Below, in pieces: positions 3,580 to 30,935 of a stretch of DNA of 64,000 bases. The notes under the pieces were generated by a model. That model was not told the origin of the DNA, did no database searches, and was given only the letters and a program-made list of their open reading frames with translations. The translations under genes were made by a program, and so were the position numbers. Position 1 is the first letter of the stretch. Every line of letters begins with the position of its first letter. Location: NCBI RefSeq assembly GCF_053078305.1, contig NZ_CP166879.1. One strand, given 5' to 3'.

Positions 3580-5772
3580 ATGTCCGATAGCAAACCATGG
3601 GGAGCTACGCCTGATGAGTGGTTTCATTTCGACCTGGTATTGGGGAGAACTGATCATCTTCTCCCAGTTGTATGTAACCCCGGTGCGACCATATCCCCTG
3701 ATAGTAAACTGAAAGCGCTGGGTAAGACGCCAAGTCGCTATAACCGGGACCGCCAGGTCACCGGTATTGCTCAATGGACCGGGTATGTTGTTACTGAGCA
3801 TGATTTTGCCCGCTGGTCGAATGAACCGGATTATGGCATCTGCGTGCGTACAGGCCATGGCTGGCTGGCGCTGGACGGCGATAGCGAAGATGAAGACATT
3901 CAGGCAGATATTCGCAAAACGCTTGTGCAACTTCTGGGGGAGTTGCCGCCGCGACGCTGGCGAGCAAACAGTAATAAGTGTCTGTATCTGCTGGCCGTTG
4001 ATGGTGATTTCCGTAAGCGTATCCATCGCCTGGCGGGGGATATGGGCATTATCGAGTTGCTGGCGAACGGGCAGCAGTTCGTTGCCTGTGGTACGCACAG
4101 CAGCGGCGCGCGTATTGAATGGGACGGTGGTTTGCCGGATGAACCTCCGGCTATTACTGGTGAGCAGCTTGAAACGCTGTGGCAGCGCCTGGCTGAACAA
4201 CTCCCTGTGTCGGTAACCACCGAAGCGGGCAACACGAAGATGCGCGACCGATCAGCATTCACGCCCGGCGCGACGGATGATACAGCTGAATATCTTGATG
4301 CCAATGGCTGGACGCTGCTGGATGGCGCAAATGGTGAACGATATATCCGCTGTCCGTTTGAAGACGGCCACAGTAGCGGGGGCGATCCAACAAGCACAGC
4401 TTATTTTCCTGCGGGAACCGCGGGCTTTGAGCAGGGGCATTTTAAATGCCTGCATGCCAGTTGTGCGCATCGTGATGACGGAGATTTCCTTAATGCCATC
4501 GGGATCCGCAACGACGATTTCGAAGATCTGACCAGCACCGAAGTGGCGGAACCTTTACCGCTGCCTGCTTTCGAGCGTGATAAATGGGGGCGTATCGAGG
4601 CAACCATCAGCAACGCAGCCAAAGCAGTAGTACGCCCTGATTTTGTGGACATCGATATTCGCTTTGACCAGTTCCGCGACGAAATCATGTTTGCCTCTGC
4701 AGGATCCGGACAATGGCGAGCATTCACCGATGCGGATTATGCGCGCCTGCGCATCACGATGGAAAAGCGGGGATTTAAACCTGTTGGTCGTGAACTTATT
4801 CGCGATGTGGTGTTACTTGCAGCCGATGAACAACCATTCGATTCAGCGATTACCTGGCTGAACGGGCTGGAGTGGGATGGCGTGCCGCGCATCGAATGTT
4901 TCTACCATACGCACTTCGGTACAGCCGACACGCCTTATACCCGTGCGGTGTCTATGTACATGTGGACCGCGTTGGCGGGGCGAGTACTGGAGCCAGGCAT
5001 CAAAGCGGATATGGTGCCGATCCTCGTTGGTCCGCAGGGCTGCGGTAAGTCTTCCGGAGTGGAGGCACTGAGCCCTGATCCTGCGTTTTTTACTGAAATC
5101 TCTTTTGCCGAAAAAGACGATGATCTCGCTCGAAAAATGCGTGGTCGGCTGGTGGCAGAGATTGGTGAACTGCGCGGACTTAATACCAAAGAGCTGGAGT
5201 CAATCAAAGCGTTTGTGACGCGTACTCACGAAAACTGGATCCCGAAATACCGGGAGTTCGCCACCCAGTTTCCTCGTCGCCTGGTGTTCGTTGGTACCAC
5301 CAATGAGGACGAATTCCTTGCGGACAAGACTGGTAACCGTCGCTGGCTCCCCGTGGAAGTGTCGAAAGTCGACGTGAAAGCGATAAAAAGAGATCTCCTT
5401 TTACTTTGGGCTGAGGCTCGTGAGGTGTTTCAGCGTCTGGGGGGTATCCAGTTCCGTGAGGCTGAACAACTGGCAGCGAGTGTCCATGAACAGTACACCA
5501 TCAAGGATGCTTGGCTTGAAACGGTAGAGAAATGGCTCGACACGCCAGACCTGATGACTAATGAACTTCCGCGAAATTGCGAATTTTTACGCGCAAGTGA
5601 TGTTTTGCGTGATGCGATTGGGCTAAATCCTGACCGCATCGGAAAACGCGAAGAAATGCGAATTAGTAATGTTTTGCAAAATTGCGGGTATAAGCGTGTC
5701 CAAAGGCGAATTGGGGGGAAAATGACTCGAATTTTTGAGGCGGTGTCCCAACCTGTACCAGCCTCAAAATAG
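3580..5772 (+). CDS. Phage replication primase-helicase (N-terminal primase-polymerase-like region, C-terminal P4/VirE-type NTPase)
   Basis: 730 aa; Walker A GPQGCGKSS; family assignment from recall. Confidence 0.75.
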   Translation: MSDSKPWGATPDEWFHFDLVLGRTDHLLPVVCNPGATISPDSKLKALGKTPSRYNRDRQVTGIAQWTGYVVTEHDFARWSNEPDYGICVRTGHGWLALDGDSEDEDIQADIRKTLVQLLGELPPRRWRANSNKCLYLLAVDGDFRKRIHRLAGDMGIIELLANGQQFVACGTHSSGARIEWDGGLPDEPPAITGEQLETLWQRLAEQLPVSVTTEAGNTKMRDRSAFTPGATDDTAEYLDANGWTLLDGANGERYIRCPFEDGHSSGGDPTSTAYFPAGTAGFEQGHFKCLHASCAHRDDGDFLNAIGIRNDDFEDLTSTEVAEPLPLPAFERDKWGRIEATISNAAKAVVRPDFVDIDIRFDQFRDEIMFASAGSGQWRAFTDADYARLRITMEKRGFKPVGRELIRDVVLLAADEQPFDSAITWLNGLEWDGVPRIECFYHTHFGTADTPYTRAVSMYMWTALAGRVLEPGIKADMVPILVGPQGCGKSSGVEALSPDPAFFTEISFAEKDDDLARKMRGRLVAEIGELRGLNTKELESIKAFVTRTHENWIPKYREFATQFPRRLVFVGTTNEDEFLADKTGNRRWLPVEVSKVDVKAIKRDLLLLWAEAREVFQRLGGIQFREAEQLAASVHEQYTIKDAWLETVEKWLDTPDLMTNELPRNCEFLRASDVLRDAIGLNPDRIGKREEMRISNVLQNCGYKRVQRRIGGKMTRIFEAVSQPVPASK

Positions 5773-5773
5773 A

Positions 5774-5925
5774 GGTTGGTACATTTTAACTAATTGAATT
5801 TAAAGGTCAGTACCAACTGTACCAACTGTACCAACCTAATTACTAAGAACCCCATATATATATATAAGTCGCTTGGGGAAAAGGTTTGAAAAGAGCTGGT
5901 ACAGGTGGGTACAGGTTGGTACAGG
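5774..5925. repeat. Iteron cluster: GTTGGTACA once and TGTACCAAC x3 (5811-5835), AT-rich (TA)n core (5853-5866), inverted GTACAG-type repeats x3 (5896-5924); candidate replication origin
   Basis: Repeats read directly; sits immediately after the primase-helicase stop. Confidence 0.6.
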
Positions 5926-6053
5926 CCGAACAAGGAATTTTTTGCACATAACAGCGTGTAATAAGCGAATCGGAACTGCGTTATCCACACCCACGGATAA
6001 ACAGACGTGGTTCTCAGAAAATTTTTTCGTAGCAAAACGTAGAGGTCAGAGCT

Positions 6054-6476
6054 ATGCGTAATATTCAACAGGTTTTAGAGCGCTGGGGTGGCTGGGCAGC
6101 GAGTGAAGGTGGTAGCGTCTACTTTCCTCCTGTTGCAGCCGGGTTTAAGAATCTGCTACCCGCGACGCAGTCTGGAAGGCTGAAATGCAGTGACAATGAC
6201 GGTCTTATCATCAACTCCGCTATGAGCTGCCTGAAGAAAAAAGATCCGTATCTGTGCACGCTCCTTGAGTGGCATTACGTCCAGGCCATGCCCGTGCGGG
6301 CGATGGGTGAGAAGCTCGGCGTATCTCACACCCACGTTCTGAAGAGGCTTCAGGCGGCAGAGGGATTTATTGACGGTTGCTTAGCCATGCTGGATGTGGT
6401 GCTCGAAATGGATCAGTCGGTTCAGTCAAAGCCTCAGGCTATCAGGACTTTGCGTAGGAGCTGCTCGGCGGCATAA
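6054..6476 (+). CDS. Late-gene antiterminator, Q-like (putative)
   Basis: 140 aa; upstream of lysis cassette; resembles small Q-type antiterminators from recall. Confidence 0.45.
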   Translation: MRNIQQVLERWGGWAASEGGSVYFPPVAAGFKNLLPATQSGRLKCSDNDGLIINSAMSCLKKKDPYLCTLLEWHYVQAMPVRAMGEKLGVSHTHVLKRLQAAEGFIDGCLAMLDVVLEMDQSVQSKPQAIRTLRRSCSAA

Positions 6477-29885: not shown

Positions 29886-30533
29886 CTATGAAGCTAATTT
29901 GTTTAATTTCATTTGTAGTGACTTTACTTCTTGGTCGATAATGTCGAATCCCTTATTGACAGCATCTCTTAGCTCTGCATCAATATTTTTTATCCCTTGA
30001 GCATAATCTACCATTATATTTATTTTTGCATCATGTAATCTCTTATACATGGTTTTATTTTTGTTATTGTCTGCCATGCCAATAAGGATTTTTTCATAAT
30101 CCTCAATGAGTTTGTTGTTTCCTTTAAATGATTGTATTAATGAGCGTGAATATGTGTATATGTTAATTATTGAGTCTCTAGCAGAATCATTTAGTTTTGC
30201 AATGACATTCGCATTTTGCTCATAGAATGTGAAATTATCATCCCCTACAGGGAATGTGAGAATCAACATTTGTCCCGGTTTTATATTATCAATGTGTGTT
30301 TTCATCCTTTTATTATATAAATTGATTAGGGTGAAAACTTCTCCCTTAACTCCTTTTAATACTGAAAGTTGTAATTCAAGGGATTCTCTTTCTGTCTCTA
30401 CTTTAGACAGCTTAGCTTGTTGGGTAACTCCTTTTAGGGTAAACCATCCGCCAATAAGAGTACCAACTAGAGCTGTGAGGGAGGAGGATAACCATCCAGG
30501 TATGCTATTTAAAAGATTACTAAATTCACTCAT
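29886..30533 (-). CDS. Hypothetical membrane-anchored protein (N-terminal TM helix, coiled-coil-like remainder); prophage cargo
   Basis: ORF track 215 aa; hydrophobic stretch WLSSSLTALVGTLIGGWFTL; strongly AT-rich. Confidence 0.5.
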   Translation of the reverse strand: MSEFSNLLNSIPGWLSSSLTALVGTLIGGWFTLKGVTQQAKLSKVETERESLELQLSVLKGVKGEVFTLINLYNKRMKTHIDNIKPGQMLILTFPVGDDNFTFYEQNANVIAKLNDSARDSIINIYTYSRSLIQSFKGNNKLIEDYEKILIGMADNNKNKTMYKRLHDAKINIMVDYAQGIKNIDAELRDAVNKGFDIIDQEVKSLQMKLNKLAS

Positions 30534-30593
30534 TATAAGTACTCGCTAATATTGAACGATATATATATATCAAATTATTATAAAACTCGTCAG

Positions 30594-30935
30594 CTACTGG
30601 AGAAGGCTACCTGAACTTCGATCTATTCCTGCATCCATATAGTTGATGGTCTTCTGGAGCTCTTCGATTAGGGCAACAGCTTTTGCTCGAGAAATGCATA
30701 TTAGTTGATCCGGAAATTCTTGTAAGGGCCAGTTTGGTATACAGGCCATGTTATCAATGAAGGATGCAGACAAGTAAACTTCATTGGTAACCAGAGAATA
30801 GCTTACCTCAAAATTGGTGAGTTCCGGCAAACTGCTAACGTTTGACTCTTTTCTGCGCATAATATTATCCATGACTGTAATTATGTACAGGTGATGGTCT
30901 TCAATTTCGAAGAGGGAGTCAAGGGGGAGTCTCAA
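30594..30935 (-). CDS. Hypothetical protein, upstream partner of the membrane protein; prophage cargo
   Basis: ORF track 113 aa from TTG; alternative ATG gives about 92 aa; AT-rich. Confidence 0.4.
   Translation of the reverse strand: MRLPLDSLFEIEDHHLYIITVMDNIMRRKESNVSSLPELTNFEVSYSLVTNEVYLSASFIDNMACIPNWPLQEFPDQLICISRAKAVALIEELQKTINYMDAGIDRSSGSLLQ

Follow-up and report, generated by a model that had tools for sequence, protein, structure and literature searches.

The Rep proteins of SaPIs are helicases as well as initiators and recognize short iterons through a C-terminal winged helix, and the complex of SaPI1 Rep1 with DNA has been determined by cryo-EM (7PDS) (PMC9371898). SaPI origins contain 6 to 12 iterons immediately downstream of the rep open reading frame, divided equally between the flanks of a central AT-rich region, with at least two iterons per flank and the two flanks in opposite orientation; binding and melting take place without ATP or a loader (PMC9371898). 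The origins of E. coli PICIs have the same organization, and the function of the pri-rep-ori segment has been tested on plasmids (PMC6092414). In satellite phage P4, the alpha protein unites a primase of the DnaG type, a superfamily-3-type helicase, and a C-terminal winged-helix origin-binding domain in one polypeptide (PMC2777425). Among Shiga-toxin phages, the "Eru10" type has been described as having nothing but a Prim-Pol protein and Q in the interval from cI to stx, with no mention of an origin or iterons (PMC8951638), and a comparative-genomics paper on APSE placed the origin only by a skew-based program; we found no origin description for APSE or Eru10 phages in the literature that was searched, and absence there is no proof of absence.

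Here we describe an array of 9-nt repeats in an APSE-like temperate prophage of E. coli, located at approximately 5744-5925 of the window, by which we mean the whole 64-kb stretch of DNA that was analyzed, and probably constituting an origin of the SaPI/PICI type that is bound by the prophage's own helicase. The array has the position of a SaPI/PICI origin, immediately 3' of the open reading frame of the putative initiator, and its design, with opposed iteron sets around an AT-rich center (5809-5835 / 5836-5894 / 5895-5923); the initiator belongs by homology to the Rep-family helicases (phmmer and Foldseek matches to 7PDS), and comparison of 88 loci in at least nine classes points to cognate initiator/origin pairs. 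PICIs and other satellites lack virion and lysis genes and depend on a helper, but the prophage has genes for holin, lysozyme, terminase, portal, head, and DNA polymerase; the layout of a SaPI/PICI origin in an element with virion and lysis genes thus indicates a PICI-type origin in a true phage.

The repeat array and its surroundings

The array begins within the last codons of a long replication gene and extends into the intergenic region beyond it. Its components, and the features that overlap it, are as follows.

3580-5772, plus strand: replication gene, 730 aa; Prim-Pol, VapE/SaPI-Rep-type helicase, and C-terminal winged-helix-like domain
5744-5752, plus strand: outer repeat copy TGTCCCAAC, inside the last codons of the primase-helicase gene
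5754-5762, plus strand: outer repeat copy TGTACCAGC, inside the last codons of the primase-helicase gene
5754-5787, plus strand: terminator-like RNA hairpin with a 12-bp stem and a 6-nt loop, followed by TTTTAA; comprises two repeat copies
5775-5783, minus strand: outer repeat copy GTTGGTACA, beyond the stop codon (5770-5772)
5809-5817, plus strand: left inner copy AGTACCAAC, beginning with A rather than T
5818-5826, plus strand: left inner copy TGTACCAAC
5827-5835, plus strand: left inner copy TGTACCAAC
5836-5894: AT-rich spacer of 59 bp, GC 32-37%, probable DNA-unwinding element
5895-5903, minus strand: right inner copy GCTGGTACA, reverse complement
5905-5913, minus strand: right inner copy GTGGGTACA, reverse complement
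5915-5923, minus strand: right inner copy GTTGGTACA, reverse complement

Nine copies of the 9-nt repeat TGTACCAAC, with at most one mismatch, thus lie within 5744-5923, in the order [+ + -] over the stop codon of the primase-helicase gene, then [+ + +], the 59-bp AT-rich spacer, and [- - -]. The left inner set (5809-5835) is a threefold tandem of (A/T)GTACCAAC with a period of 9, the right inner set (5895-5923) is an inverted threefold tandem with a period of 10, and both point at the spacer. The outer [+ + -] set (5744-5783) straddles the stop codon, and its copies at 5754-5762 and 5775-5783 together form a palindrome with 12-bp arms; because the second in-gene copy pairs in this way with the copy beyond the stop codon, the feature begins at approximately 5744 and not at 5774, and the repeats span from 28 nt before the stop codon to 151 nt past it. 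The initial annotation had correctly recognized three tandem copies on the left (although the first starts with A), three tandem inverse copies on the right, one further inverted copy near 5774-5783, and the position of the array directly 3' of the replication protein gene, which ends at 5772 and is in fact overlapped by the repeats. Its inventory of seven copies stands as far as it goes, but the count was incomplete at seven instead of nine, the two in-gene copies at 5744-5762 having been missed, and the start has been moved accordingly.

The concentration of repeats is far beyond chance. When GTACCAAC was searched for on both strands of the whole 64-kb window with at most one mismatch, 9 of the 48 matches fell inside 5745-5922, so that the 180-bp repeat region holds nine matches where the background rate of the remaining DNA predicts 0.11 (Poisson P ~6e-15); in 200 shufflings of the window, no 180-bp span held more than 4. 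Single exact matches at 30460 and 60476 were dismissed as being at chance level, and GTTGGTACCACC at 5290-5301 was rejected as a tenth repeat, the same letters being present in a locus of another repeat class and falling within a conserved coding motif.

The AT-rich spacer with a (TA)n run, also reported in the initial annotation, has a G+C content of about 35% and contains an (AT)6.5 run (ATATATATATATA, 13 nt, 5854-5866) between CCCC and GGGG. Judged by nearest-neighbor free energy, the 30 bp from 5837 onward rank within the least stable 0.04% of all 30-bp stretches in the 64 kb. The spacer core CTACTA..AACCCC(AT)nAAGTCG is unchanged across repeat classes in an alignment of nine loci, and the offset of the (TA) run is fixed in almost every close relative. 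The length of the run varies from 8 to 18 nt, mostly 13, among otherwise near-identical prophages (window 5854-5866 and loci L001-L093); this looks like microsatellite-type slippage and shifts the spacing of the two inner triplets by as much as 10 bp. Duplex stability reaches its minimum for the 64 kb elsewhere, at 30524-30600, an AT-rich stretch with GATATATATATATC at approximately 30559-30572.

The replication gene stops with TAG at 5770-5772, the next gene, encoding the Q antiterminator, begins at 6054, and the Prim-Pol/VapE fusion is the only gene between cro and Q. In a regulatory explanation, the repeats would bind the C-terminal domain of the helicase but serve mainly autoregulation, a roadblock, or terminator control over transcription passing from the early operon into Q, with the origin located elsewhere. 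Iteron-binding initiators often autoregulate as well, as in iteron plasmids, and the outer palindrome yields a strong RNA hairpin with a T-run between the replication gene and Q (terminator scan positive; RNA fold -23.5 kcal/mol, z -3.6). The palindrome is kept in all repeat classes, but the T-run is absent from the GGAACCAC class in the nine-locus alignment; termination is therefore not the conserved function of the hairpin, the conserved role would lie at the DNA level, probably in paired binding, and termination may be a secondary extra in some variants. A promoter scan found no plus-strand promoter-like site in the repeat region and a single site on the minus strand, no more than in shuffled sequence. 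The layout is, moreover, retained in phages without Q downstream, and convergent triplets around a conserved, unstable spacer have no obvious regulatory logic and match the SaPI/PICI origins that have been tested; we consider a mainly regulatory role unlikely and an origin the better reading of the array.

A perfect DnaA box (TTATCCACA, 5981-5989), the sole exact copy in the 64 kb, is situated between the repeats and Q, approximately 60 bp beyond the right inner set. E. coli loci of two repeat classes have the box, but most other relatives that retain the repeats and the spacer lack it, and it was rejected as a core part of the origin for this reason; DnaA-dependent origins have a cluster of conserved boxes beside the unwinding element, and here there is one perfect box only. 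The box lies inside an imperfect inverted repeat, GTTATCC..GGATAAAC, at approximately 5980-6003.

The primase-helicase and its C-terminal domain

Pfam assigns aa 76-188 of the 730-residue protein to Prim-Pol (PF09250, E 5e-9) and aa 427-639 to a VapE-like ATPase domain (E 2e-60). The helicase portion (aa ~384-657) matched SaPI1 Rep1 (7PDS_A) with a phmmer E value of 7e-34, the sole match among all PDB sequences. An AF2 model of aa 321-730 (mean pLDDT, 90.5) likewise found 7PDS as its best PDB fold match (Foldseek E 2.5e-27; TM 0.77, query normalized, over ~450 columns), followed by the NrS-1 primase-helicase, poxvirus D5/E5, the African swine fever virus (ASFV) PrimPol, and SaPI5 PriRep5. To the left of its repressor gene, the prophage also encodes a DNA polymerase of its own, together with DUF2800 and DUF2815 proteins.

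Beyond the ATPase domain, aa ~660-721 form a C-terminal domain modeled with a pLDDT of ~90, in which DSSP gave the order helix, helix, helix, beta-hairpin; helices at aa 672-680 and 689-701 precede a hairpin made of aa 704-711 and 714-721. The corresponding DNA, assigned by DSSP on AF2 models, is as follows.

5644-5682, plus strand: predicted recognition helix, aa 689-701
5689-5742, plus strand: beta-hairpin wing, aa 704-711 and 714-721

Of these elements, it is the second wing strand (K714-M-T-R-I-F) that differs from one repeat class to another. A fold search with the isolated last 100 aa returned weak matches (best E, 0.03), nearly all of them winged-helix proteins, and included no known origin-binding domain and not the P4 alpha domain 1KA8; no Pfam family was found in these 100 aa, and no NCBIfam family was found for the whole protein. 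As the fold matches of the isolated domain are weak, we regard a winged helix as likely from the model and assign the domain to no family of origin-binding domains.

Repeat class and helicase wing in related phages

Megablast against phage records gave matches in the Q and primase flanks only and nothing across the repeats, and loci for comparison were therefore taken from E. coli genomes and IMG/VR contigs. The segment was found in 139 of 5,426 complete E. coli genomes, in all of them on the chromosome, and the comparative set comprised 88 loci, 80 of which were IMG/VR contigs. In the alignment of nine loci, three repeat types (TGTACCAAC, TGGAACCAC, and TGTTACCAC) each replaced the others at all nine positions. 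The proteins of the aligned loci were 93-99% identical over 706 residues and differed essentially in the last ~20, where three tail variants were present (..KRVQRRIGGKMTRIFEAVSQPVPASK, ..KRAQRRIGGKKCKVWEPLEPRGTT, and ..KRETRRVEGKLMKVWRRA). Across the 88 loci, the [+ + -][+ + +][- - -] pattern was kept at almost fixed offsets, the repeat sequence fell into at least nine classes, and the 7 residues from the conserved GK of the wing predicted the repeat class one to one.

Wing GKMTRIF: repeat TGTACCAAC, 19 loci
Wing GKKMRIF: repeat TGTCCCAAC, 5 loci
Wing GKK[CS]K[VLI]W: repeat TGGAACCAC, 32 loci
Wing GK[LS]MKVW: repeat TGTTACCAC, 10 loci
Wing GKVLKVW: repeat TGTATCCAC, 5 loci
Wing GKVQRVW: repeat TGTAACCAC, 6 loci
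Wing GKQQR[VI]F: repeat AGACAACCT, 7 loci
Wing GKQIRVW: repeat AGACCACCT, 3 loci
Wing GKVCRVW (APSE-1): repeat GTAACAACC, 1 locus

In the one apparent exception, the reading frame is shifted where the gene ends, and the repeats of this locus were those of the expected class. Both the recognition helix, EEMRISNVLQNC, and the 3' terminus of the repeat, C[A/C]AC, change very little from class to class, which suggests that the helix recognizes the constant part of the repeat and the wing the variable part. Relatives differ in whether the stop codon precedes or follows the outer copies (its offset to the first repeat is -25 in the window and -1 in L046 and L047), so that the tail peptide SQPVPASK is translated repeat DNA and not a conserved feature of the protein. 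Taken as a comparison of sequences, the co-variation proves a specific protein-DNA partnership and not the role of that partnership in initiation.

The exchange of repeat class involves one short segment, which contains the wing-coding gene end and the whole of the predicted origin.

5700-5975, about 270 bp: specificity cassette

Between the window and locus L002, identity was 65% across 5690-5960, compared with 98.4% upstream and 99.2% downstream, and within the cassette, the spacer was 81% identical and the repeat blocks were 60% identical. Such pairs of loci bear directly on the possibility that the repeats are an operator or promoter array, whether for the antiterminator Q, the alternative raised in the initial annotation, or for the immunity proteins CI and Cro. 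The repeats do lie upstream of Q, and repeated inverted sites look like operators, but an identical Q protein (WP_001244506.1) occurs in L001, of the TGTACCAAC class, and in L002, L003, and L008, of the TGGAACCAC class, with DNA that is 99% identical from 5961 onward; similarly, L001 and L004 have identical repressor and Cro proteins, and L009 and L003 have a second repressor/Cro pair in common, in each case with different repeat classes. Since repeat class is uncoupled from Q, CI, and Cro, these proteins can be removed as candidates for binding the repeats, and of the genes compared, only the helicase wing tracks repeat class. The operator explanation is contradicted by these pairs and already largely refuted, and we give it almost no credence.

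Linkage deserves separate consideration, given that the repeats could be a pac or partition site recognized by another phage protein and could match the wing merely by residing in the same recombination cassette. Wing-coding DNA adjoins the repeats, and linkage alone would keep the two together in recent recombinants; however, the pairing is held in at least nine independent classes, in backbones that are 80-100% identical, and in distant phages as well. The terminase genes are located ~3 kb away, outside the cassette, the C-terminal domain binds iterons of this kind in the homologous SaPI system, and a small plasmid without packaging genes has the same design. We regard a packaging or partition site as highly improbable and recognition of the repeats by the helicase itself as the preferred reading.

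Distant relatives extend the comparison. The prophage groups with Hamiltonella phage APSE-1 and Yersinia phages YeP4-6, whose homologous proteins are 71% identical in the helicase half and 73% identical in full length, respectively; Caulobacter and Acidovorax phages are more distant relatives. In Yersinia phage YeP4, AGACAACCT appears in the same layout, [+ + -][+ + +] AT/TATATATA [- - -]; in APSE-1, GTAACAACC is found in both orientations around a (TA) run, together with another palindrome; in Acidovorax phage ACF1, three copies of TGTTCCTAC are followed by inverted GGGAACA-type copies; and in Caulobacter phage Jess A (Rauchvirus), copies of the GTAACCAC type lie downstream of the homologous gene, where a right-hand inverted set is not evident. 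The next annotated gene in YeP4, Jess A, and ACF1 encodes a hypothetical protein and not the Q antiterminator, from which we conclude that the repeats travel with the helicase gene. A circular 12.9-kb Serratia plasmid with no typed replicon has a helicase-only homologue (38% identity), the gene for which is followed by at least 10 copies of GTTCCACCC in both orientations around an AT-rich stretch of ~100 bp; this would be natural, if indirect, support for such a module being a replicon.

Several further observations were made at these loci. The annotated APSE-1 ORF "P4" (73 aa, L011 3361-3582) lies wholly within the spacer and right-hand repeats of the predicted origin and may be a spurious gene call. 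In Jess A (L012 3720-3770), the in-gene repeat copies fall inside the wing-coding region, and the wing appears to hold an insertion (..KRVPTSKKPVTTGVYPPSKVWVDG..), so that part of the DNA-binding domain is encoded by repeat DNA. A prophage of E. coli SMBL (L009 3717-4952) has the module and repeat class of the window, with stx2b directly after Q and a tRNA-Arg, and this Stx2b prophage matches the "Eru10" Shiga-toxin phage type (PMC8951638). Enterobacter sp. E76 "plasmid" pE76_003 (L095, CP042502.1, 76.9 kb) is circular with no typed replicon and shares with the prophage the repressor, Cro, the primase-helicase (92% identity), Q, and the lysis block; the record may represent a phage-plasmid, a phage genome that is excised or dimeric (~2x 38 kb), or an assembly artifact.

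A predicted origin of the SaPI/PICI type

The initial annotation interpreted the array as initiator-binding iterons around a DNA-unwinding element beside the gene for the replication protein, and this interpretation gains support from several directions: the homology of the protein to SaPI Reps, the layout of SaPI origins, the co-variation of repeats and helicase wing over 88 loci, the persistence of the layout behind the helicase gene where Q is missing, and the uncoupling of repeat class from Q, repressor, and Cro; the comparative evidence is the strongest. We propose that the Prim-Pol/helicase fusion would use its C-terminal winged-helix domain to recognize the 9-nt repeats; the 3' part that the classes have in common (C[A/C]AC, then CT after the last copy) is probably contacted by the conserved recognition helix, and the 5' part that distinguishes them is probably contacted by the variable second wing strand. 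Once bound to the two convergent triplets, the protein would assemble as helicase rings on either side of the 59-bp spacer, and these rings would melt the spacer without a separate loader and then unwind outward; the protein's own Prim-Pol domain would lay primers, which the phage-encoded DNA polymerase would extend. The outer set over the stop codon is probably an auxiliary binding site. We infer DNA binding, melting, ring assembly, and origin activity, and also self-loading by the prophage helicase, from these comparisons.

The resemblance to SaPIs and PICIs, including EcCICFT073, is the closest among the systems considered. They and the prophage have homologous initiator-helicases, with a C-terminal domain of the winged-helix type that in the prophage is predicted, and an origin, in the prophage a probable one, immediately 3' of the gene, and in both, initiator and origin pair class by class; the fused primase-helicase of SaPI5, PriRep5, parallels the Prim-Pol/helicase fusion of the prophage. 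There are also differences. The repeats of the prophage are 9 nt long, whereas SaPI iterons are described as being 5-6 nt, and the prophage, unlike SaPIs and PICIs, has a fixed 3+3 arrangement with an extra [+ + -] set over the gene end and a specificity difference that maps to a few residues of the wing. In addition, SaPIs and PICIs are satellites and the prophage is a complete temperate phage.

Phage P4 alpha has the same functional organization in one polypeptide, but its primase is of the DnaG type and that of the prophage is a Prim-Pol, and neither a PDB sequence search nor the isolated-domain fold search matched the prophage protein to the P4 alpha domain 1KA8. The short iterons of P4, TGTTCACC, resemble some prophage classes, such as TGTTACCAC, and P4 requires two separate sites, ori and crr, neither of which is known to abut the gene end directly. 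Phage lambda also has iterons beside an AT-rich region, with initiator/origin specificity types that have been exchanged among related phages, and its ori, like the prophage array, belongs to the early rightward operon, where the iterons come after the immunity region and before Q. In contrast to lambda, the prophage has no O or P homologue, its predicted initiator being itself helicase and primase, and its predicted origin follows the gene with inverted sets, whereas the lambda origin is inside the O gene with four direct 19-bp iterons. In SV40 and papillomaviruses, inverted initiator sites by AT-rich DNA seed two helicase rings of large T antigen or E1; these SF3 initiators are only distant relatives of the prophage protein, with origin-binding domains of a different fold. 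ORF904 of the archaeal plasmid pRN1 is again only a distant relative, which, like the prophage protein, combines Prim-Pol, helicase, and winged helix and has an essential region 3' of its gene but, unlike the prophage, has no discernible iterons. The module of the prophage is that of the nonlambdoid "Eru10" type of Stx phage (PMC8951638).

A broader proposal, which we put forward tentatively and with somewhat less than even confidence, is that SaPI/PICI-type origins occur in true temperate phages (APSE-like, Eru10-type, and, less fully, Jess A) and in small plasmids and that, in the lineage of the prophage, the choice of origin is set by only 2-4 residues on one wing strand, swapped together with the repeats as a cassette of ~270 bp. 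Specialists may find two details of interest: the additional repeats over the gene end, and the localization of specificity to a few residues of the wing within the 270-bp cassette. If the proposal is correct, initiators and origins of these phages would make up at least nine natural pairs, each orthogonal to the others, and the code by which the wing recognizes DNA would be readable. Near-isogenic prophages distinguished solely by the wing-plus-repeat cassette amount to a natural experiment on change of initiator specificity, and the cassette variants could supply orthogonal replicons. The loci compared here indicate that the design of SaPI/PICI origins is not confined to satellites, and a concrete, testable origin can be proposed for widespread enterobacterial prophages, including the Stx2b-converting "Eru10" phages and the aphid-symbiont phage APSE. 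Shiga-toxin output after induction is affected by the level of replication, and knowledge of the origin would be useful there.
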